Origin: a virus
Direction: 5' to 3' (one strand)
IMG/VR virus record: IMGVR_UViG_3300045988_171260
DNA length: 64,000 nt
Positions 2,108 to 19,881 of the stretch are shown here, in pieces. The first letter of the stretch is position 1. Each line of letters begins with the position of its first letter. Made by a program: the position numbers and the translations under genes. The notes under the pieces were generated by a model. It searched no databases. It was not told the DNA's origin and saw only the letters and a program-made list of their open reading frames with translations.

Positions 2108-3240
2108 AATATAATTCTCCTTTTAAATAGTTCCATAAAAGTATCTTTTCCTTCATCTATTGGGCTTGATTTATATTGCAATAGGTCCCATCTATCAAAC
2201 ATAAAAGATATTTGAGTATAAGCACCATACTTATTATGAATATCTGTTAATTTCTTTGTCCAACGCTTCCATTCATCATCACCAATAGTAATAAACTGTT
2301 TATCAAAAGCAACAATAATTTCTTTTACCCCTAAAGATAATAATAATTTAACTTGATAAGTAATTAATGAACTTCCGCAACAAGCTACACTAATGTCATT
2401 TTCTTCTCCAAAATAGCTAGCATATAAAAGACAAGATTTTTCTCCTTCATAAACAATAACTTTTTTAATTATTTTTATATTATCTTTACTATTATTAAGA
2501 TTATATAGGTTAAAGCCTAGAGGGTGGTTATACATAACTCCATTTAGAATAGCTGGTCGATATTTTCCAAAATTTTCTTCTTCTTTAATTAAAGTTCTTT
2601 CTCTTATTCCAACTAATTGATTATTTATATCATAATGCGGAATTACTATACCTTGGTTTTTAGGATCATAGGCGATGCCCCTATGATCCATTACCTCCTT
2701 TTTTATTCCCTCTTGTTCCCAAGTTATTATTCGCGGACGAGGTAAATACTGTAAAATTTTATTATCAAAAATTCTTAATTCTACTCTTTGCTCTTGTTCA
2801 TCTTTGTTTATTTGCTCATAATTATTAAGAACTTCCCAATCTTTTAATTTCTCTTGAGTCTTTTGAAAATCAAATGTTTTTGGTGAATATCCATAATATA
2901 TTGCAACAAATTCAACAGCATCAAAAAGTTCCCATTCTCTATAACAAACTTTTCCTTCTTTGTTATAATAACTTTTTAAGTCCTTACTATTATTTTTTAT
3001 CTTTCTTACAAGTTCATATATATCAAAGCTAGTCCCACAATCAGTATAGCATCTAAATAATTTAGTATTGTCATAATAATATAATTTATAAGAGCCTTCT
3101 CCAGCATGATTATGACATATTGTTTTAGAAATAAAAAAACCACTTTCCATTCGCGGCTCTCCACCCAATTCCGCGACCAGATCAAAAACTTGCTCTATTG
3201 AAAGATTTAATTTTAATTCGTCTTTATCATACTTATACAA
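2104..3240 (-). CDS. DNA primase, DnaG-like
   Basis: 378 aa; CHC2 zinc finger (CHNHAGEG...CYTDCG) and TOPRIM-like VIVYEGEKS. Confidence 0.65.
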   Translation of the reverse strand: MYKYDKDELKLNLSIEQVFDLVAELGGEPRMESGFFISKTICHNHAGEGSYKLYYYDNTKLFRCYTDCGTSFDIYELVRKIKNNSKDLKSYYNKEGKVCYREWELFDAVEFVAIYYGYSPKTFDFQKTQEKLKDWEVLNNYEQINKDEQEQRVELRIFDNKILQYLPRPRIITWEQEGIKKEVMDHRGIAYDPKNQGIVIPHYDINNQLVGIRERTLIKEEENFGKYRPAILNGVMYNHPLGFNLYNLNNSKDNIKIIKKVIVYEGEKSCLLYASYFGEENDISVACCGSSLITYQVKLLLSLGVKEIIVAFDKQFITIGDDEWKRWTKKLTDIHNKYGAYTQISFMFDRWDLLQYKSSPIDEGKDTFMELFKRRIIL

Positions 3241-3269: not shown

Positions 3270-3803
3270 TTAAAAAGCACTAACATCAGCCTTTTTTTCT
3301 TCTTTTGGCTTAACAGTGATTTTTAAATCTTCAATAGGAATCAACTCATACTGGTAATTAGTTGCAAACATAGGAATAATTTTACAAGTACCTCTATTCG
3401 CCTTACACCACAATAAAATTCCTTTATATCTACCTCTACGATTTTTATAAACAGAAATTTTAATTAAAGGTATTTCAAACCCGCCTTGAGCTAAAACATT
3501 TTCTAAAGCCGTACGATCATCATTATCAACTTCAAGCATAATCATACCACAATCAATTTTATCCGCAATAGATTTAGCTCCTCTTAACAGATTCTGATCA
3601 TACTGTTGAGCTGTTATATAACTACTATTTAACTGAGTTGCCGTCATAATAAAAATGCCATACTGATTACACATATCTTTTAAACGAATTGAAATCATAA
3701 AAAGGATATTATCCTCTCTTAACCCTCTCACTCCAGTTTTAGATGAGACTTCACTTAAAATTTTCATACTTGTATGGATGTAATCGAAGCACGTAAGTCC
3801 TCT
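3270..3803 (-). CDS. replicative DNA helicase DnaB-like, exon 2 (C-terminal RecA-like half)
   Basis: Frame opens after TGA at 3807-3809; GLTCFDYIHTSM aligns to DnaB Walker B GLIMIDYLQLM; H3/H4-like RLKDMCNQYGIFIMTATQLN and RGAKSIADKIDCGMIML; 5-prime boundary uncertain by ~15 nt. Confidence 0.65.
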   Translation of the reverse strand, partial: RGLTCFDYIHTSMKILSEVSSKTGVRGLREDNILFMISIRLKDMCNQYGIFIMTATQLNSSYITAQQYDQNLLRGAKSIADKIDCGMIMLEVDNDDRTALENVLAQGGFEIPLIKISVYKNRRGRYKGILLWCKANRGTCKIIPMFATNYQYELIPIEDLKITVKPKEEKKADVSAF

Positions 3804-4811
3804 CTTTCAAGAGGCGTTGACTATCTCTTACTACGACAAAAGTCATAGGAAACCATTTCGAACTACGTACCAATAGTAGTCCTACTCCTCCGATCCGAGG
3901 ATAGTCGATACAGGTTCTTTAGACATTTTTCCAAGTTCTTCTTTTAATCAAATCTGCAACAGTTGCTTTTGAGATTCCATATTGTTTTGCTATTTTATCA
4001 TAGCTTTTCCCTGTTTTTTCTCTTTCTTCCCTAATTGCTTTTACAATTTCAACAGTAAGTTTGGTTTTTCTTCCCGTACCATCATTTGTTTTAAAAACTT
4101 CTGGCATTACAGTAGCATACCTTTTTCCAGTCCAGATATTTAAAAAAGATTGCCATTCTATTCTTCCTTCGTATTTTTCTTTAAATATTTTAGTTGGACT
4201 TTTTTGTTCTTTATAAGCAATTCGCAAAGAGATAACTTCTTCTTTCGTAAGAGCTGCATGAGACCATCTCATTTTTTCTTTAGTCTCTTCCTTATGCGGT
4301 CTCGCACAATTCTTTCCACCTTCTAAAACATTATAGCCATTAGGAACTTTTGAGTTAAATTTTAAAATATAATATTGTTCTAGCTTATTAAGTAAGTCAA
4401 AATCATTGTCATAAATTTCAGCTAATACTTCATAAGTAAAATTTTCATAACCATATTTTCTAAAAGCTCTATGAATTAATGATTCATAATCTTTATCAGA
4501 AGGATTGAAAGCAGAACTTCGATGCTGATTTTTTCTTTGCTCTGGGTTAATTGTTTGTCCTATATATTTTTTATTATTGATTTGATTAGTATAACAGTAA
4601 ACTATTGCCATTTTTAACTCCTTCCACACAATTTTCTATTTGTGTATGAAAGTAGTCAAAATAAATTTGATTATTTCTGTCCAAAGTTTCCCACGGGATT
4701 CCCATATATATTTCTACTTAGGGTTCCCCGTTAGCTATCTTAAACGATAACCCCAGTGGTAAGCTGGAAAAGTTTTACACAGTCCTTTAAACCCACAAAA
4801 GGGTTGAACAC
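3804..4811 (-). mobile_element. group I intron in helicase gene carrying a GIY-YIG homing endonuclease gene
   Basis: Splits DnaB-like ORF between Walker A and Walker B; GCUAACGGGGAA and AAUCCCGUGG core elements shared with two other introns in window; 3-prime AGAUAGUCAACGCC S-like element; exact junctions not resolved. Confidence 0.6.
3919..4629 (-). CDS. GIY-YIG homing endonuclease (intron-encoded)
   Basis: MAIVYCYTNQINNKKYIGQT...NGYNVLEGG classic GIY-YIG N-terminus; lies between helicase exons. Confidence 0.85.
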   Translation of the reverse strand: MWKELKMAIVYCYTNQINNKKYIGQTINPEQRKNQHRSSAFNPSDKDYESLIHRAFRKYGYENFTYEVLAEIYDNDFDLLNKLEQYYILKFNSKVPNGYNVLEGGKNCARPHKEETKEKMRWSHAALTKEEVISLRIAYKEQKSPTKIFKEKYEGRIEWQSFLNIWTGKRYATVMPEVFKTNDGTGRKTKLTVEIVKAIREEREKTGKSYDKIAKQYGISKATVADLIKRRTWKNV

Positions 4812-5837
4812 ATATTTAACATCATATTCTCTAACTCCACGTTTAATAGTATTCTCAATATCTTTTAAAGAAAAATCTGGTAATTGTTCTATATATAATG
4901 GACATCTCTTTAAAAGGTTTGCCGCATAAATAACACGTTCCCATTCTCCTGAATAGTATTCTCCAGAGATGATATGCTCTTCATCTACATCAGATAAAAA
5001 AGCGATCATCATAGTCTGAATTTCATCTTTCTCTTGTTCTGTTGAAATAAAGATTGTTGGTTCTTTAGTTCCATTTGGAATCCATTTTTCTTCTTTAGAA
5101 TCATAAATTTCATCGCACGCAATAGAACATGCATCCGCAATCATCGCTCGTGTTTTTCCTACTCCTGTTGCGGCTGATCGCAAATAAAATTTCTTTAATC
5201 TAGCCCCTCTAGTTACAGTATTTATCAAGGGTCCGAATAGAGGATATCCTGCTTCAGGTGTCTCTTTTAAGCGTTCGAGTAGCTCTAATGCTCCATTACC
5301 TGCCAGCTCCGCACCATTAGAAGCATCATCTACATACTTTAATCTTATATCAGTAATTTTTTTGTCAATGATCTCTGCAATATCTTCAATAGATGAATTA
5401 TCTAACCAATCCTCTTGAGCCTGCTTCTTCTTAACATCCATGATATTGTCTATATCATATAACCATGATAAATCCATTCCTATATTTTGATACATTCTTA
5501 GCAAAGTCATCTTTTTCATCCTGCTATAATAAAAATCAAAAGCAGCTAATTGTACTGATTTACTTAATTTTTGAAGATATTCTTGTCCCTTATTAGCTTT
5601 ATAAACTGCATAACTTTTTGGTCTTTGCTCTAAATAATCTTCTATCGCATTGATAGAAATTTCTTTAGCACCTAATTCATGTAAATTATATATAGACCCA
5701 AAAAGAATTTTATGAAATTCTTCTGTAAAATCCTCTTCATTAAAAAAATATTTTCCATCTTCATCTAGTAAATTAGGGTTTAAATAAATCCCTCCAATAA
5801 CTTGAATAATAGATGGAATGTCTACATATTTTCCCAC
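4812..5837 (-). CDS. DnaB-like helicase exon 1 (N-terminal domain, Walker A)
   Basis: 365-aa ORF; Walker A SAATGVGKT; last ~25 aa of ORF track product likely intron read-through. Confidence 0.65.
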
Positions 5838-6420: not shown

Positions 6421-7359
6421 CTAATCCACACTTTTTACTAATTCTTTCAAGTCAGTAACAATTAAATCTAAAGCCTCAACTTGATCTCTTGAACATTGAC
6501 TAACTTTCATACCTTTTCCTAAATATCTATCTGTAATTTGAACGATTCTAGGCTGCCAATATTCTTTAAATTCCTCATTAGATTTTTGCATGATTAAATC
6601 ATTTACAATAGTATTGAAACTATTCAATAATTCATCAAAATCTAATTCCGCTCTTGTGTCTTTATATAAGTTTGATCTTTCGTCTGTAAAATACTCACTT
6701 CCATCTTCTTCCATTTGTTTATCAATAGCCATGCCAATAGCATCAACTAAGCTTTGATAATTAAAATCAATGTAATCTGGAGTATATTTAAAACGAGAGC
6801 CTGCAATATATCTTGGCGTTCCACGCATAAATAATTTAGTTGAAGTTTTACCTTCTTTATCTTGAATACTACGAGAGTAGCCTATAATATCGCACATTCG
6901 AGATACAATCGCTCTAGGTTTATTTCCTAAGGTAGGAACGATCTGATTATACTCTTGACCTTGCTCATCTTTAAAAGTTTTATCTACTGAGTGACTAATT
7001 AAAACTAAACCGTAATCCATTTGAATAATAGAACGTAAACATTCATCATATTCTTTGGCGACTAGAGTATACCCTTTCCCAAAAGGAATATCACTAACAG
7101 AATCCACCCCAAAGCCGCCATCTGGTCTTTTTGCATTGGCACAAATATACTTTTCACACAAGTCATATGCGATATCTGCTGTATCCAGAATAATCGTTTC
7201 AAACTGTTCTTTTACTTTTTCATCTTTTAATTGTCTCAGCACTTTTCTAAATTCCGCCCAAGTATTAATTGGCTGAGCCATTGCTCCAGGAATCGCGTTG
7301 TATCCTTTCTCAAAAGCCAGTAACAGGTGGCGGGGAAACTTGGTTGCGATCGTCGTTTT
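6421..7359 (-). CDS. AAA_24/Sak4-like RecA-fold ATPase, exon 2
   Basis: Begins KTTIATKF..., which completes Walker A when joined to exon 1; IILD Walker-B-like and LVLISH. Confidence 0.6.
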   Translation of the reverse strand, partial: KTTIATKFPRHLLLAFEKGYNAIPGAMAQPINTWAEFRKVLRQLKDEKVKEQFETIILDTADIAYDLCEKYICANAKRPDGGFGVDSVSDIPFGKGYTLVAKEYDECLRSIIQMDYGLVLISHSVDKTFKDEQGQEYNQIVPTLGNKPRAIVSRMCDIIGYSRSIQDKEGKTSTKLFMRGTPRYIAGSRFKYTPDYIDFNYQSLVDAIGMAIDKQMEEDGSEYFTDERSNLYKDTRAELDFDELLNSFNTIVNDLIMQKSNEEFKEYWQPRIVQITDRYLGKGMKVSQCSRDQVEALDLIVTDLKELVKSVD

Positions 7360-8352
7360 CATATATTATATAATATAATACATCAGACTATATCTTCAAA
7401 TATTTATAAAGGAATATCAGAAAAAACAAAACCTTTTAATTTACGAATACCTTTTAAATATCGGCAAATAGATGAAGGTGCAACTCCAAAAGCTTTAGCA
7501 CACTCTTTTTGTGAATTATAAGAGTCAATAAAATTACCATTATTATCATATACATAAACTATTTTCTTGTTTGAATTACTCCAACAGTTGATCTTATCTT
7601 TTTTATACGATTTAAACTGATATTGTTTATAATGCTGCTGTTGTTCTGTTATACATCTCCATATACTAGTGTAATCCAAATTAAGCTTTTGTGCAGCTTC
7701 ATAACCATTTACAAAAGACTGAATGTAATTGCCACTTAAATCATATTGATGACATTCTTTCATTTCATGTTGTTGTAAATTACTAGTGTAACTATGACGC
7801 ATATTCTCTAATGCTGTTGACCACTCTAAATTATCTATATTATTATTTAATTTATTTCCATCTATATGATTAACTTGCAATTCATCCATCTCTTCACAAG
7901 GTTTAAATGCTTTCATAACCAATCTATGAACTGAGCAATTCTTATCTATTCGATAACGTAAATGCACCATACGATAACCATTATTAGTAACTGATCCTCC
8001 TAATAAGGTTTTAGTTGAATCATTACGCACATTACCATAATTAGATACACTATAAAAAGTTTCTTGACCGTTAATTAAAATTTTTTTCCAAATTTCTTGT
8101 TTTTCCATAATTATTCCTCCTAAATACCTACGGGTATTTCGATTATAAAATCTACGGTTATAAAACCTAGTCGTTGAACCTTTGTCTCCGTGAGACACTT
8201 GGCTGCGGATTGGAACTACAATAAACGTTTTACTATACCAAGCACATTACTACTTGCCATTATAATATCGCTATTATAACTTAGTCTTTATTGATTATAT
8301 TCTATCCCCGCAATTTCCCCATATTATCGTGGCAAAAATTCTCTCTCTATTC
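7360..8352 (-). mobile_element. group I intron interrupting the Walker A codons of the ATPase gene; carries HNH endonuclease ORF
   Basis: Exon 1 ends GGU (U) at 8353, intron ends G at 7360; intron has AAAUUGCGGGGA (P), AAUCCGCAGCC (Q), GUUCAACGACUAG (R), AAGAUAUAGUC (S) elements. Confidence 0.7.
7404..8198 (-). CDS. HNH homing endonuclease (intron-encoded)
   Basis: 264 aa; HRLVMKAF...VNHIDGNKLNNNIDNLEW...ENMRH HNH motif. Confidence 0.75.
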   Translation of the reverse strand: MSHGDKGSTTRFYNRRFYNRNTRRYLGGIIMEKQEIWKKILINGQETFYSVSNYGNVRNDSTKTLLGGSVTNNGYRMVHLRYRIDKNCSVHRLVMKAFKPCEEMDELQVNHIDGNKLNNNIDNLEWSTALENMRHSYTSNLQQHEMKECHQYDLSGNYIQSFVNGYEAAQKLNLDYTSIWRCITEQQQHYKQYQFKSYKKDKINCWSNSNKKIVYVYDNNGNFIDSYNSQKECAKAFGVAPSSICRYLKGIRKLKGFVFSDIPL

Positions 8353-8445
8353 ACCACTTTTAGGCTCTCCATAGAAGAATACACTGTATCCTCTTAAGTC
8401 TCTTGATACTTGATGCGGTTTAATGTTAAGTAAATCAATTCCCAT
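8353..8445 (-). CDS. AAA_24/Sak4-like ATPase, exon 1
   Basis: AGAGGAAAG RBS then ATG at 8445; MGIDLLNIKPHQVSRDLRGYSVFFYGEPKSG then in-frame E, stop; splice restores GEPKSGKTT. Confidence 0.6.
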
Positions 8446-8513
8446 AATTATCTTTCCTCTAACTTTCTTTATTTAATTTATTATTTATTATTTGCCATTA
8501 TTAAGTTAAATAA

Positions 8514-8534
8514 ATTGGGAGCTAAGCTCCCAAT
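8514..8534 (-). terminator. rho-independent terminator hairpin
   Basis: attgggagctaagctcccaat perfect hairpin just downstream of stop of 8537..9487. Confidence 0.5.
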
Positions 8535-8536
8535 CA

Positions 8537-9487
8537 TTAAAAATTAAAACCGCCATTGCTTACTGAAACAGTTGAAGCTTTAGGAGAAGAAGAATTACCA
8601 TTAGCAGCTTTCTGAGCTAAGTATTCCTCTCTTCTCTTCTTAACCTCAGCAAGATGAACCTCTCTATTCTGCATAGCCTGAGTAACTTCTTCCGCGGTTA
8701 AAACATTCTCATCTCCAAAATCATATGGCACAAGGGATACTCCAATAATCTCCCATTCTTTTGATTTCTTCTCATAGCTTTTTACTGCTACTTCACCGCC
8801 AAAAGCTGATTCTTCTTTCTGTTCTACTACAATAGTTCTGCAATTAATTCTTCCCCACACTTTTGTAAATAAAGGTTCTGAAGAAGAAAAATCTAAATTC
8901 TCAAAATACTTAATACCTTCTGGATTTTTTAATACAAACTCTACTGGTAAAATATCATTTCTAAAATTAAAAACTGCCCCTCTGATTGTTAAGTAATCAT
9001 TTAAAATACCTTTTTCCTCATCTGCTTCCACTCTATTCATAGAAGTCATAAGCATATCTGTTGTAAAGGTATTTCTTTCATTTTCTTTACATAAATTACT
9101 AACAATAGTAACAAATCCACCCTCATTCACTTTCTGTGATACTAAAGTGTCTTCATTAACATAGAAATCATTTAAAGCAAGAGCAGTATCAATTTTTACT
9201 TTCGTTGCCTCATCTTTTCCGTCTGTAATCCATGCTTTTCCTTCATCAATAATTTTCTTCAAAGCTGTATAAGTAGCGTTTTTCTTACCAGCTTTTGTTG
9301 TTTCTGTCACGTATGTAAAGTGTACTTCTACAATATTCATACCCTCTTCATCTACAGCTACACTTAATGTACCTGAAATGAATTCTTTTCCATAATTACT
9401 TGACTGCTGATTTTGAACTGTTTTAATTGTCAATTCATGCTCATATACTCTGCCCTCGATATGTTCTGTATTAATTGCTTTTTTCAT
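8537..9487 (-). CDS. hypothetical protein (possible ssDNA-binding / recombination-associated)
   Basis: 316-aa ORF adjacent to RecA-fold ATPase; no diagnostic motif recognised. Confidence 0.3.
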   Translation of the reverse strand: MKKAINTEHIEGRVYEHELTIKTVQNQQSSNYGKEFISGTLSVAVDEEGMNIVEVHFTYVTETTKAGKKNATYTALKKIIDEGKAWITDGKDEATKVKIDTALALNDFYVNEDTLVSQKVNEGGFVTIVSNLCKENERNTFTTDMLMTSMNRVEADEEKGILNDYLTIRGAVFNFRNDILPVEFVLKNPEGIKYFENLDFSSSEPLFTKVWGRINCRTIVVEQKEESAFGGEVAVKSYEKKSKEWEIIGVSLVPYDFGDENVLTAEEVTQAMQNREVHLAEVKKRREEYLAQKAANGNSSSPKASTVSVSNGGFNF

Positions 9488-10737: not shown

Positions 10738-11544
10738 TTATTTATTTCCAGAAGTGCTATTATAGCCATAAATATCACTTTGATACATTTGAATCCAAAA
10801 TTTTTCTTTTTCGTTTAATTCTGTTCTTGAACATTCTTCCATCAATTCAAAAGAAAAATTCCAAACACCATCTTGTTGCATTGCTTTATATAACTTATTT
10901 GTTGCGGAAGCATCTATTCCCAATCCGCATTTAACGTGCTGCTTAAATCTATCTTGAATATTAACGCTTTGTCCAATATAGCATTGTTTAGTTAATAAAT
11001 TTGTAATTTTATAGATTCCGCATTTAGTAGTAGTTCCTAATATCCTATTGCACATTTCAGTTGTTTGTTTTTGAAAATAAGTTGACCAAATAATTTTATT
11101 TAAAACAACAGGTTGATGAAAAGAAACTTTTATTTTATTTAATGCCATGATATCTGATAATTCATTATCTGTAATAGTTAATTTGTAAAAGTTAATTTCT
11201 TCTTCTTTTTCTCTTTCGCGGAGTTGAGCTTGAACGCCTGCACTTAATGATTCTTTTAATTTACATAAAGATTCAGTAATTTCTTTCTTCTCTTTATCAG
11301 TTTTGACTTTATATAAATCATATCTTAATTCCATATCTTCATATGCTTTTTCTAATTCTATAACATATTGTTCTTTTGCATATTTAATTTTATCTTTATA
11401 ACTATTATATTCTTTTAATTGATTTTCTTTAAAAATGTTTAATTGTTCCAATATATCATCTTTCTTTTGACAGAAAGATTTAAAAGCATCAGATTGTTGC
11501 TCTGTAAGTAAAGATAATTCTCTTTGCCTGCCTTTGATTTGCAT
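10738..11544 (-). CDS. coiled-coil protein with C-terminal GIY-YIG nuclease domain
   Basis: N-terminal ~170 aa Lys/Glu-rich; C-terminus GIYKITNLLTKQCYIGQSVNIQDRFKQH...YGYN; start ATG 11544 (ORF track uses TTG 11550). Confidence 0.55.
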   Translation of the reverse strand: MQIKGRQRELSLLTEQQSDAFKSFCQKKDDILEQLNIFKENQLKEYNSYKDKIKYAKEQYVIELEKAYEDMELRYDLYKVKTDKEKKEITESLCKLKESLSAGVQAQLREREKEEEINFYKLTITDNELSDIMALNKIKVSFHQPVVLNKIIWSTYFQKQTTEMCNRILGTTTKCGIYKITNLLTKQCYIGQSVNIQDRFKQHVKCGLGIDASATNKLYKAMQQDGVWNFSFELMEECSRTELNEKEKFWIQMYQSDIYGYNSTSGNK

Positions 11545-11788
11545 TATCAAATTACGTTTTTGAAAAGCTAAAGAATTTAATTCTTTTAATAAAGCTTCTT
11601 TTTCTTTCTCTTCCTTTTTATTATTATATATAATAGTATTTTTTGATTTTATTGTTAAATATATCCCATAAAATAAAAAAATAATACTAATAAATAAAAA
11701 GAATATTATATAAACAATATCGGTAGCCTCCTTAAATAAAAAGAATGGGTTAAACTAATAATTAGCTTAACCCTTTTAAAATTTATGA

Positions 11789-16509: not shown

Positions 16510-16912
16510 TTACTCAGCATTATATGTTGCCTCCTGCGAATGTTCTTTAATATATGCTTTTCTTGCAGTTACCCCATTTCCCATTAACTGTTCAAAAAGA
16601 ATTGAAGTTGCACTAACATCTTCAACTGTAATTTGTCTGATAATTCTTTTCTCAGGATCTGTTAAAGTTTCTTCTGTCTCGTCTACTGACATTTCACCTA
16701 ATCCCTTCATACGCCCAACCAAATACTTCTTTCCTGCATTAGCTTTTTTAAATGCCTCTAATTCTTCATCATTTTTTAAGTATTTATATTCTTTTCCAAT
16801 AGTAATTTTGTATAAAGGTGGAACTCCCGCATAAACATATCCATCCTTTATAAGTTCTGGACAAAAGTTCCATATAAATGTATAGAAAAGATTTTTGATA
16901 TGTGCCCCGTCG
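16510..16912 (-). CDS. type IIA topoisomerase subunit B (GyrB / T4 gp39-like), exon 3
   Basis: DGAHIKNLFYTFIWNF...VYAGVPPLYK; splice joins SDADV|DGAHI. Confidence 0.7.
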
Positions 16913-17285
16913 CGTCTCATTCTCATGTTTCCATAAGCACTGACTATCTTTTACTTAATATAAATTAAGGAGACCTTTTCGACATTTAACCAGCTTCGTT
17001 ACCTAAAACTAGACTACGTATCAATAGTAGCTCTACTTCCCTGCCCAGAAGGCTTAGGGAATAGTCGATACAGCTTCAATTATTCTTCATTTTATATTTT
17101 ATATTTTATATTTTGTAAGATTTATAAATATAAACTAAAGAACAAAAGTTTGCCACGGGATTCTCATACGCTTTATCATCACGATATACGCTCCAGAGTT
17201 CCCCGTTAGCATATATTATTATTATTATAGTAATAATATATACCCGCTTGATTAAGCGAAAAGTCTTTCATACGCCGTATTACTG
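16913..17285 (-). mobile_element. ORF-less group I intron (373 nt) in GyrB-like gene
   Basis: 5-prime exon ends GU at 17286, intron ends G at 16913; P1 GCGU pairs exon ACGU; GCUAACGGGGAA core and AGAUAGUCAGUGC 3-prime element. Confidence 0.65.
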
Positions 17286-17524
17286 ACGTCCGCATCTGAC
17301 ATTATAATTATTTTACCATATCTTAAATCTTCTTTATCGTAAGTTACTTTCATAGTTTTAGGATCAATTTTAAGTCCAAAAGCATCAATCATAGTCATGA
17401 TCTCAGCGTTTTTCTGAATTTGAGTTAATGTAGCTTTTTGACAATTTAAAATTTTTCCTCTTACAGGCATGACTGCCTGGAATTCGTTGTTCCGTGCTGT
17501 TTTTAAGTTACCTGAAGCACTATC
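17286..17524 (-). CDS. GyrB-like exon 2 (TOPRIM region)
   Basis: DSASGNLKTARNNEFQAVMPVRGKILN...YGKIIIMSDADV. Confidence 0.7.
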
Positions 17525-18609
17525 CGTGCATATCCCATATTTCTATAGGCACTGACTATCTCTTCACTCCGATTTGTCAAATCTTCAACGTGTCCTCTAT
17601 TTCCACTTTTGTATCAATAAAAAGTGTACTTCCAATCTCACTTGGAATAGTCGATACAGCTTATTTTATATCTTTGTATGTTTGTCGAGTTATTATATTA
17701 TATATAGTACTCCAGGCAGAATTTGGAGCATACTTTTTCCAAACTTCTTTTGGAGTCATTCCCTTATCATAATCTTTTCTCATATTTTTTACTTCTTCAT
17801 TAGAAAATTTTCTTTTGTTATTTGAAGCTATTTCAAAGCTATTAGCTTTAGCTTGGTGAGAATGCCAATATTTATTTTCTTCAGAATGATATTCTGGATG
17901 GATATCTTTCCAAGTTTCAAACCACCAAACTTTTTGTAAACCTCTTTTAGATATTTTATTTTTATATTCTTCATAAACTTGTTTAAAAGAAATATGATTA
18001 TTATAACATTCTCTTATATATTCTACATCTTCCTTGGATAATAAAGCTCTTCCATTTTTTTCACCATACTGAGATCTATTAGGATTATCTTCTCCTCCAG
18101 GAGTTGCATTATATCCTTCTTTATAAGAGTTATAATATTTAATAAAATATTTTTCAAGATCGTTTAGCATATCTTTAGAATATTCTTCATTAGATATTTC
18201 TGCAATTATTTCATAATCAAAATTTTCTAATCCATATTTTCTTATTGCTTGATGTAACTGGCTATTATAATCTTTTGCTTTTTCGTTAAAAGCTGATGAT
18301 TTATGTGCCATTTTTCTTTGTTTTAAATTAATACTTTGTCCTATATAGACTTTTTTATTAATTTTATTTTGATATTTATATATACCTATCATATATTCAC
18401 TGTCTCCTTATAATTTATTCATTACAATATGAAGGAGACTCTATTTTCATTAATAACCTTTGACAAAAATATAAAATCTTGCCACGGGATTGACTTCACC
18501 TAAACATGTTTTGACTTTCACGTATAATGGTCAGCTTTCCCCGTTAGCACGCAATTTGCGTACCCCGCTGATAAACGGTAAAAAGGATTAGGGCAATATT
18601 TTTTTACTT
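17525..18609 (-). mobile_element. group I intron (1085 nt) with GIY-YIG homing endonuclease gene
   Basis: Exon 1 ends GGU at 18610; IGS GCCCU pairs exon AGGGU; CAAAUUGCGUGCUAACGGGGAAAGCUGACC core; intron ends G at 17525 giving EIYVTEG|DSASG. Confidence 0.7.
17661..18392 (-). CDS. GIY-YIG homing endonuclease (intron-encoded)
   Basis: MIGIYKYQNKINKKVYIGQSINLKQRKMAH...NGYNATPGG. Confidence 0.85.
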   Translation of the reverse strand: MIGIYKYQNKINKKVYIGQSINLKQRKMAHKSSAFNEKAKDYNSQLHQAIRKYGLENFDYEIIAEISNEEYSKDMLNDLEKYFIKYYNSYKEGYNATPGGEDNPNRSQYGEKNGRALLSKEDVEYIRECYNNHISFKQVYEEYKNKISKRGLQKVWWFETWKDIHPEYHSEENKYWHSHQAKANSFEIASNNKRKFSNEEVKNMRKDYDKGMTPKEVWKKYAPNSAWSTIYNIITRQTYKDIK

Positions 18610-19881
18610 ACCCTCAGTCACGTATATTTCGCACTTCATTCTATCCTTTGAATAACAATCCGCGAGTTTAGAATCAAATTTTAAAACTTTTTCTTTTTTC
18701 TTTTTTTCTTTTTCTCTTGCAAGTTCTCTTGCTTTTTTCGCGGCTTCACTTGCCTTTTTCGCGGCGATTGCTTTATCAAAAATTACTTTAATCTCTTTTT
18801 CATTTGACAAGAGCCAGCTCTGAAGGGCGGTAGTAAAAGCAGATGTTTCAGGTTTTGTATCAATAGCTGTAACTCTGGATTTTACTTGAGCATCATACGA
18901 AACACTTGGAGCAGTATAATTAAATACAACGTACATTCCCTCTTGAATACTGTCACCTGTAAGGTTTTCGTCTTTTTCTTTTAACCATTTCTTATCTCTA
19001 AAAAATTTATTCATTTCTCTTGTAAGAGAAGTTTTAAGCTGTGTAATATGTGCTCCTGTATCGGTAAGACCAGTATTTACATATGGAATAATAGTTGAAG
19101 AATAATTAGAGGTGTACGTCATAACTAGATTAAGTTTAAATTTATCTTGTGAAAAATCTACATTTAATCTATTAGTTATAATTTCTTTATCTTTAACGGC
19201 ATCATCAACTAAATCATTTAAACCATGCTGAGATTGATATACTTCTTTTTTTCCGTTATTATCAAGATTAATAGTTAATCCGGGACATAAACAACTAATT
19301 GTTTTAAATAACGTTTGGATTTTATTAATCTCTACTTCTGTATTTGCAAAAAAATCTTCAGATGGCTGCCAAGTCACGACAGTACCACTTTCTCCTGTCC
19401 AGTGTCCTGTAGCCCTATCTTTAAATACTCCTTCATTAAAAGTAATTTTTTCATATTCATTATCTCTATGAGTTTCAACGGTCAGCCAATGTGACAAAAA
19501 CGTTGTGATTTTTGAACCGATACCGAATGAACCCAGTGAAGTTCCTTCATATGATCCATCTTCCCGGTATTTTCCAGATGTGTTTAATACACTAAAAGCT
19601 GCTTCAAGAACTGTTTTTCCATCTTCACGAATTGAATTGGGGATAAAACCTTGTCCATAGTCATGTACAGTTACTACGTCTTTGACGATATTAACATCAA
19701 TTTGAGTTCCATGTCCTGCATTAAATTCATCAACTGCATTAGAAAAAATTTCAACAAGTAATTGTGTTGAATAAGTACAATCACCAGCGTAAACTTGTGG
19801 TCTTAGTCGAGTAAATTCCAACGGATTTAATGAAATTAAGCTATTTTCATTATATAAATTATCTTGTCTCTCTTGTCTCAT
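18610..19881 (-). CDS. GyrB-like exon 1 (GHKL ATPase domain)
   Basis: ...EIFSNAVDEFNAGHG...DYGQGFIP...EIYVTEG. Confidence 0.75.

Follow-up and report, generated by a model that had tools for sequence, protein, structure and literature searches.

What is the DNA that parts the codons of a nucleotide-binding motif in a phage ATPase gene, and can that gene still give an uninterrupted protein? The question is raised by a 64,000-nucleotide stretch of viral DNA (IMG/VR record IMGVR_UViG_3300045988_171260; hereafter the window), in which a Sak4-like P-loop ATPase gene lies in two pieces, exon 1 at 8445..8353 and exon 2 at 7359..6421, separated by 993 nucleotides (nt) at 8352..7360. The gene, the intervening sequence and all of their parts described below are on the minus strand. 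We consider it very probable that the intervening sequence is a mobile phage group I intron of IA2-like type (with P7.1 and P7.2, without P2), residing in the ATPase gene of a phage that is uncultivated and about 135-140 kb in size. The initial annotation had given 7360-8445 for an intron inserted precisely in the Walker A codons; this span is correct for exon 1 and intron together, the intron proper being 7360-8352, and the placement is borne out by both the DNA (loci L001-L005) and the protein (P0001-P0005) of uninterrupted relatives.

Exon 1 starts with an ATG at 8445, directly downstream of GAGGAAAG, which resembles a ribosome-binding site (RBS), and reads MGIDLLNIKPHQVSRDLRGYSVFFYGEPKSG; its 31 codons (MGIDLL...FFYGEPKSG) end in TTC TTC TAT GGA GAG CCT AAA AGT GGT, and the encoded N-terminus is identical to that of the intron-less homologs P0001-P0005. 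The closing GGT occupies 8355..8353, and the T (U in the transcript) at 8353 is the nucleotide of the 5' splice site. Right after it the intervening sequence opens GAATAG, giving an in-frame stop (GAA TAG), and it closes ATATG, base 7360 being G. Exon 2 begins AAA ACG ACG ATC GCA ACC AAG TTT (KTTIATKF) from 7359 and continues for 312 codons to KSVD and a stop at 6421. When the exons are joined in silico, GEPKSGKTT, a Walker A motif (GxxxxGK[ST]), is restored within a product of 343 amino acids (aa); the insertion point lies between the Gly and Lys codons of the motif (GEPKSG/KTT, the slash marking the junction here and below). These exon ends, the in-frame stop and the restored junction are those initially annotated.

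Homologs were sought among 5.8 billion proteins. The uninterrupted homologs P0001-P0005, from contigs of up to 135 kb, are 343 aa long, cover the whole spliced protein at 98-99% identity, and read FFYGEPKSGKTTIATKFP across the junction, which is identical to the ligated exons. At the DNA level, the intron-less loci run ...AGTGG[T/C]/AAAACGACG... (in a longer form, ...CCTAAGAGTGG[T/C]/AAAACGACGATC...), and the predicted ligated junction is ...AAAAGUGGU/AAAACGACG... (junction-spanning stretch, AAAAGTGGTAAAACGACG; intron-less site, TTCTATGGAGAGCCTAAGAGTGGTAAAACGACGATCGCAACC). Because all of L001-L005 read uninterrupted across the site, the extra DNA in the window amounts to exactly 993 bases, and the match is lost when the boundary is moved by one base either way. 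The ligated exons equal the intron-less DNA except for synonymous polymorphisms at positions -7 (AAA/AAG) and -1 (GGT/GGC). These naturally occurring alleles, with the intron and without it, argue more strongly than any other single observation that the insertion is discrete and that taking it out precisely restores the gene. A change from AAG to AAA at position -7 had been considered as an obligatory marker of immunity or co-conversion; over the bases corresponding to 8353..8361 of the window, AAA occurs in the window and L007, and AAG in the intron-less alleles and also in the intron-bearing loci L129 and L130, and the marker was therefore rejected.

By its sequence relationships, the host gene is a Sak4-like (AAA_24, YorG-like) P-loop ATPase gene, in agreement with the P-loop ATPase first proposed. 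The spliced protein matches Pfam PF13479 (AAA_24) at 128 bits (cut-off 27) over profile positions 2-195 of 195, and among the PHROGs it matches PHROG 124, 'Sak4-like ssDNA annealing protein', with an E-value of 1e-49. Its homologs in cultured phages, each of which is a single uninterrupted piece, include an Enterococcus phage protein (EF1, VRE9 and others; 52% identity) and YorG of SPbeta (31%), and the adjoining genes are YorF-like, YorH-like and DnaB-like, as in SPbeta. The literature treats Sak4 proteins as remote relatives of RecA/RadB that have annealing activity (PMC5928155, PMC2896510), and a RecA/RadB kinship of the present ATPase would rest on these sources; Sak4 is needed for the replication of some staphylococcal phages (PMC5499656). 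A PDB sequence search with the ATPase found no solved relative, only Rab matches at chance level, and an AlphaFold model with a mean predicted local distance difference test score of 47, made from a shallow alignment in which all members are more than 80% identical, was not used.

The intervening sequence is a complete group I core that is split by an ORF (open reading frame) in the loop of P8. A U precedes it (8353), a G ends it (7360), and P, Q, R and S elements are found at 8316, 8211, 8180 and 7397, respectively; the initial annotation had noted the U, the G and the four elements, and their combination goes far beyond chance. The P1 hairpin (8329..8357), which appears in unconstrained minimum free energy (MFE) folding, pairs the exon GUGGU and intron GAA (8357..8350) with an internal guide, UUUGCCAC (8336..8329). 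In it the exon GUGGU (8357..8353) is bound to GCCAC (8333..8329) with a U8353.G8333 wobble, and the stem is lengthened by GAA with UUU. The final exon-1 base is C (GGC) in the intron-less loci L001 and L002, and such an allele, were the intron present, would swap the U.G wobble for a C-G pair. UUUU (8337..8334), directly 5' of the part of the guide engaged in P1, could form a P10 of 4 bp with the AAAA that opens exon 2 (7359..7356), and the whole guide is complementary to the ligated junction GUGGU/AAAA, the wobble excepted.

The 5' part of the ribozyme (8129..8323) reaches from P3 to the 3' strand of P3. P3 (UAUGGG, 8323..8318, with CCCGUA, 8134..8129) forms a pseudoknot with P7 and is invisible to the MFE algorithm. 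P4 (8312..8308 with 8208..8204) lies in the same part, as do P5 with an extension of about 70 nt and P6/P6a (all within 8129..8323). P7 joins GACUA (8172..8168) to UAGUC (7390..7386), the latter strand lying within the S element, and it is followed by P7.1 (8167..8156; GGUU with AACC) and P7.2 (8152..8141; GAUU with AAUC). P8 consists of GGUAUUUA (8128..8121) and UAAAUAUU (7406..7399). The 3' part (7360..7406) contains the 3' strand of P8, the S element, the P9 hairpin (7376..7363) and the omega-G at 7360. When the P8 loop (L8) was replaced by a tetraloop, giving an ORF-deleted core of 283 nt, and this core was folded without constraints, the MFE structure contained P1 with its U.G wobble, P4, P5, P6a, P7, P7.1, P8 and P9; all of the P3-P9 helices of the intron form with standard pairs. 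A pair of helices, P7.1 and P7.2, lying after P7 and before the 3' strand of P3 is a hallmark of subgroup IA in the Michel-Westhof scheme. Given the absent P2, we word the class as 'IA2-like', which is a descriptive label and not a formal classification.

The helices were also examined for covariation. A Q-P6-R pattern scan of viral contigs gave 120 loci, on which R1, a covariance model derived from the window core after trimming, was run at E<=0.01. It matched 38 other places as well as the intron of the window in its two halves, 8325..8106 and 7420..7360, the 5' part scoring 144.6 bits, by construction, and the 3' part giving a separate match of 37.2 bits at 7420..7360. The alignment was fitted to a model from the same sequence, and the numbers are therefore inflated and lean to the structure: 92.1% of the cells form standard pairs, versus 32-44% in controls with the 3' partners shifted by 1-3 columns, 43/53 pairs are changed on both sides, and none of 500 shuffles reaches any of the observed measures. 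Covariation is seen at every pair of P3, P5, P6a, P7.1 (four pairs), P7.2 (four pairs), P8 and P9, and P4 and P7 are almost invariant, as a core would be expected to be. Most of the ORF-less R1 relatives that were re-checked are full-length matches to the curated Rfam group I model, RF00028, at 59-108 bits, above its gathering score of 50 bits. Since RF00028 accepts most of these relatives, the window core and curated group I introns are homologs that correspond in every helix.

The ORF in the P8 loop (8108..7404) has 234 aa and a stop codon (7406..7404) that falls inside the 3' strand of P8; its RBS, GGAGG (8120..8116), comes directly after the 5' strand of P8 and seven bases upstream of the ATG at 8108. 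The initial annotation had seen an HNH endonuclease here, and the Pfam domains, all above their cut-offs, agree with it: NUMOD4 (40.7 bits), HNH_3 (48.5 bits), NUMOD1 (52.8 bits) and I-HmuI_NUMOD-like (39.3 bits). The ORF also matches PHROG 59, 'HNH endonuclease' (E-value 9e-45), and the only solved structure that matches it is I-HmuI (PDB 1U3E; E-value 1.5e-8 over about 100 residues), a remote similarity. Its nearest relatives in cultured phages are HNH homing endonucleases of about 28-37% identity, I-KsaIII among them at 33.5%, and in locus L007 the ORF is called as a 234-aa gene. A search for related loci with the HNH protein gave identical copies and one 34% relative only, which were of no use for covariation.

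Besides the bias of the R1 figures, several points weigh against a mobile, self-splicing intron. P2 is not present, and P10 would be made of four A-U pairs only, in competition with the intron-proximal portion of P1. Splicing is predicted from sequence and family membership, and the ORF product is a predicted I-HmuI-like HNH homing endonuclease, with its site and activity deduced likewise. The comparison with RF00028 that the initial annotation had suggested gives a local match (27.8 bits, E-value 9.7e-5 in a permissive 1.4-kb search) over model positions 47-158, from P3 to the 3' strand of P3, with AAUUGCGGGG aligned as P, AAUCCGCAGCC as Q and GGUUCAACGACUA as R, but it stays under the gathering score of 50. 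At the gathering threshold, a whole-window Rfam search reports 33 transfer RNAs (tRNAs) and no intron, and Rfam run on L008, L007 and L002 together at E<=0.1 finds nothing, the sensitivity dropping with the larger search space. The score is partial and sub-threshold because the 705-nt ORF in L8 parts the last third of the ribozyme from the rest.

These points could be taken to mean that the insertion is dead, that is, an HNH cassette with remnants of an intron, the ATPase gene being a pseudogene or yielding only a 313-aa fragment, without the P-loop, from an ATG at 7362. The low Rfam score, splicing known by prediction, and the fact that exon 2 has its own ATG, from which gene callers give a 313-aa protein, would all suit this explanation. 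However, the core helices, the U.G wobble, the omega-G and the guide are all intact, and the core aligns, with covariation, to introns over the Rfam threshold. Moreover, the ATG at 7362 has no RBS and sits in an AU-only tract, Walker A would lose its GxxxxG part in the 313-aa product, every intron-bearing locus seen has an intact exon 1, and the interrupted allele is the dominant one in large contigs (about 135-140 kb). A dead insertion is thus very improbable, and the initial assignment to group I stands on the U/G rule, P1 and P10, the P-Q-R-S core, the partial RF00028 match and the covariation.

P-loops are classic intein sites, and inteins in DnaB, RecA, terminase and other proteins are like the present element in that a homing element occupies the most conserved nucleotide-binding motif; inteins target the P-loops of ATPases by the same logic. 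Neighbouring inteins are treated in PMC10643990, and, according to two further sources, group II introns and bypass elements occur in phages (PMC12350094; bioRxiv 10.1101/2022.08.31.505936). An intein, a group II intron, a translational bypass or a split gene with assembly at the protein level might accordingly be proposed for the window. Inteins, however, are removed at the protein level, whereas the window element has in-frame stops and an RNA catalytic core; an intein is ruled out because a stop stands two codons past exon 1 and no continuous ORF passes through the element. As for the others, no group II family was matched in the permissive Rfam search, in which the group I core was, and an N-terminal piece of 31 residues that breaks off midway through the P-loop would be an implausible subunit. 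We regard this set of alternatives as exceedingly improbable.

Has the intron moved? Its copies in four loci (the window, L007, L129 and L130) show 0-2 differences over 993 positions, with two substitutions in the endonuclease ORF, whereas exon 2 of the same loci differs at 29-80 of 942 positions (3-8.5%), with synonymous divergence (dS) of 0.15-0.38. One intron is thus found with several exon haplotypes: exon 2 of L129 is 1 nt from that of the intron-less L001, making a near-isogenic plus/minus pair, and exon 2 of L007 is nearer to the type found in a phage with a different intron. A near-identical intron in diverged exons indicates recent horizontal spread, and recent endonuclease-driven movement, with co-conversion of variable extent, would produce just such a pattern; this contrast (0-2/993 against 29-80/942) and the near-isogenic pair lend indirect support to homing. 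The ratio of nonsynonymous to synonymous change (dN/dS) among intron-bearing alleles is 0.02-0.10, and, the intron being so young, most of the exon divergence, and hence the low dN/dS, probably predates its arrival and tells little of selection once the intron was in place. As a proof of expression after insertion, the dN/dS was consequently downgraded, the intron being much younger than the exon divergence.

Counted by ORF length and N-terminus, the HNH-intron allele (313 aa, MKTT...) is present in about 168 contigs (29 clusters), and the uninterrupted allele (343 aa, 98-99% identical) in 12 contigs (5 clusters); the former is the commonest allele in this lineage. More distant relatives (81-91% identity) among the best 120 matches are all uninterrupted.

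The same mosaic of exon haplotypes is evidence that general recombination occurs often among these phages, and a splicing-competent intron might have been spread by ordinary recombination or hitch-hiking, with the HNH protein inactive or in another role (maturase-like, or marker-exclusion nicking). Its endonuclease activity is, after all, predicted, and enzymes of the I-HmuI type are reportedly nickases that can act on intron-containing DNA too, as in the SPO1/SP82 work. Against this, the ORF is full-length, keeps its four domains and has only two substitutions among the four loci, and a neutral passenger would be expected to share the divergence of its neighbours, which is not what the intron and exon 2 exhibit. 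Spread in this way is, in our estimate, quite improbable, and the three rival explanations, each of which is contradicted by sequence evidence, are unlikely even when taken together.

The mobile-intron explanation implies the following steps, the splicing and homing parts of which follow from family membership (PMC3984707). In the pre-mRNA, the guide UUUGCCAC and the end of exon 1 would pair as P1, the U.G wobble falling at the splice site. Ribosomes would be halted by the in-frame stop, which comes two codons into the intron, and the ribozyme would be left free to fold; a stop close to the 5' splice site is common in such introns and is thought to keep ribosomes off the folding ribozyme (PMC3984707). 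An exogenous guanosine bound at P7 would attack after U8353, P10 would position exon 2, and the 3' OH of exon 1 would then attack after the omega-G at 7360, so that ligation (...GGU/AAA...) would give GEPKSGKTT and the 343-aa ATPase. In a mixed infection, the HNH enzyme would nick or cut intron-less alleles near the P-loop codons, recombinational repair would copy the intron with variable lengths of flanking exon into the cut allele, and the insertion would destroy the target site. Homing endonucleases typically target codons of functionally critical residues, according to a review (PMC3984707), with which the initial description of homing into a conserved motif as a textbook strategy agrees.

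A second insertion is found at nearly the same place. In L008 and L006, the listed exon-2 proteins (P0024 and P0027) are 100% identical to that of the window, yet the ATPase gene holds a different insertion of 1,134 nt (L008 3870..5003; in L006, the 3' part only). It lies between the Ser and Gly codons (GEPKS/GKTT), exactly 3 nt upstream of the HNH-intron site, is preceded by U and ends in G, and has an ORF of the LAGLIDADG_3 family (274 aa; L008 4035..4859). Rfam gives no group I match for it, and its assignment comes from a hand model, in which P1, P10, P2 and P3-P9.2 have all pairs standard and the correct crossing of P3 and P7, with the ORF between P7 and the 3' strand of P3. The LAGLIDADG-intron allele (314 aa, [M/L]GKTT...) is present in 22 contigs (5 clusters), and in no case among the small number of loci examined do the HNH and LAGLIDADG introns occur side by side. 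In nature, one gene is thus represented by three co-existing alleles: intron-free, with the HNH intron, and with the LAGLIDADG intron. We entertain, as something short of an even call, the reading that the P-loop codons are a contested homing site of two unrelated introns 3 nt apart in otherwise near-identical phages, that the HNH intron has lately swept through diverged genomes, and that, with the three further intron-like insertions described below, this phage population is a natural system of competition and drive. Each of the two introns may destroy the other's target. If this reading is true, competition and drive among self-splicing introns would be measurable from metagenomes alone, and it would expose a core type (CUAACGGGGAA...AAUCCCGUGG...UAUCGACUAU...AGAUAGUCA) that is unreported by the Rfam group I model.

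How does the HNH intron compare with those already described? By sequence, it belongs among the phage IA-type introns, without a close described relative. In a DNA search, the ribozymes nearest to it are those of Twort-like, SPO1-like, PhiPA3, Vibrio and Clostridioides phage introns, their identity to it being 71-82% across no more than 48% of the 5' half. The best matches to this half are introns of the Twort-like phages (Kayvirus) of Staphylococcus (73-77% over 35-48%), and the Staphylococcus polA intron encodes I-KsaIII, the relative of the HNH ORF noted above. Twort introns, for example the orf142 ribozyme, are of IA2 type with P7.1/P7.2. They differ from the window intron in having other host genes and no close sequence kinship, the window intron being without P2 and having its ORF in L8. 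The introns of SPO1-like Bacillus phages are also among the nearest cores, yet at 76-80% over only 29% of the 5' half. The DNA-polymerase introns of SPO1 and SP82 (I-HmuI and I-HmuII) are, like the present one, phage group I introns in a gene of DNA metabolism with an HNH protein of I-HmuI architecture, and I-HmuI itself is the nicking endonuclease of the SPO1 DNA-polymerase intron, whose NUMOD-like domain the window ORF shares; the host gene there, however, is a DNA polymerase, and the insertion in the window is in the P-loop of a Sak4-like ATPase.

In phage T4, the intron endonucleases are of the GIY-YIG (I-TevI and I-TevII) and HNH (I-TevIII) types. The T4 introns differ from the window intron in their endonucleases, ORF positions and host genes, and no DNA similarity to them was detected in the ribozyme search. 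They (td, nrdB and nrdD, or sunY) are alike in having a looped-out ORF, a stop after the 5' splice site and insertion at codons of conserved residues, and they are the paradigm of mobile IA2 phage introns, with endonuclease-driven homing and co-conversion of flanking exons (PMC3984707). Citing Ko et al. 2002, that review mentions that recA is interrupted by group I introns in Bacillus anthracis and related Bacillus, and reports that these resemble phage introns. The Bacillus intron is also in a recombination gene of the RecA superfamily, but that gene is recA proper, of bacteria or prophages, and not a Sak4-like, core-only ATPase.

The initial annotation had called the pair of intron and host gene unannotated, and the databases do hold just the truncated exon-2 ORF: in public records, exon 2 alone stands as a complete protein of 313 aa, from an ATG made by the last three bases of the intron. 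Two such records (P0049 and P0028) are labelled 'ATP-binding protein [Megamonas funiformis]' (NCBI/UniRef) and 'hypothetical protein' (JGI), the Megamonas label being the sole hint at a host. In the literature searched, no Sak4-like gene is tied to a group I intron, the two being mentioned together only in an unrelated paper on the SPP1 genome, and a megablast search of the region against cultured phages gave only a 58-nt match inside the HNH motif, the phage being absent from that collection. The combination of intron and gene is new, but an element of this kind, built in this way and aimed at a catalytic motif, is textbook; the current view of how such introns work is unchanged. What is gained is the correction of a systematic misannotation (a 313-aa protein without its P-loop) across about 168 contigs, and a new entry, that of a Sak4-like recombination ATPase, among the phage genes in which group I introns have settled.

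Three further intron-like insertions are present in the window, also on the minus strand, at catalytic motifs of DnaB-like and GyrB-like genes. In each, a U precedes the insertion and a G ends it in one register, and splicing in silico gives continuous ORFs; they have a common style of core, CUAACGGGGAA / AAUCCCGUGG / UAUCGACUAU / AGAUAGUCA. For these insertions, as for the LAGLIDADG one, the assignment to group I was made from hand models only. The DnaB-like gene (exons 5837..4807 and 3789..3270) is interrupted by 1,017 nt (4806..3790) at YDVKYVF/FDYIHTS, in the Walker B region, in the register GUGUU/C...ACGUG/C. The insertion has a GIY-YIG ORF (4611..3919) and P/Q/R/S-like elements, and its P4, P7 and P7.1 pair, but no convincing canonical P1 was found in the hand model and Rfam reports nothing. 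Spliced in silico, this DnaB is a 516-aa ORF, the length of the intact gene of L007. The gene is intact in L001, L002, L004, L006 and L007 and seemingly interrupted in L003; since it is intact in L001 and L007 and interrupted in L003, the insertions in the DnaB and Sak4-like genes assort independently. The GyrB-like gene (exons 19881..18610, 17524..17286 and 16912..16510) gives a spliced protein of 637 aa with DNA_gyraseB, Toprim and gyraseB_C domains. Both of its insertions lie in TOPRIM, one of 1,085 nt (18609..17525) at VTEG/DSASG with a GIY-YIG ORF (18392..17661), and an ORF-less one of 373 nt (17285..16913) at SDADV/DGAHI. They resemble the core of the DnaB insertion (CUAACGGGGAA, AAUCCCGUGGCAA, GCUGUAUCGACUAUUCC, AGAUAGUCAGUGC) and obey the U/G rule, and RF00028 reports neither of them, even at E<=1. 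The data allow that several self-splicing introns may compete for, and sweep, the catalytic-motif codons of replication and recombination genes.

Genes that seem to encode free-standing GIY-YIG proteins are found on the minus strand at 10738..11550, beside the thymidylate synthase gene (Thy1), and at 19940..20707, just upstream of the topoisomerase gene. L001, L002 and L004 have an extra GIY-YIG+NUMOD1 gene (2244..2981) between the genes for a 125-aa protein and the YorF-like protein, which the window is without. In short, the replication module is a hotspot of homing-endonuclease polymorphism. The tRNA array of the window, with its 33 genes (43303..58087, minus strand), is larger than is usual in phages of this size (about 135-140 kb), and an ORF with a GIY-YIG motif (44840..45571) lies inside it. 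Finally, L095, an unrelated viral contig fetched for the core pattern, contains a full-length ROOL RNA (8236..8826; 317 bits) that adjoins tRNA genes and three group I introns.

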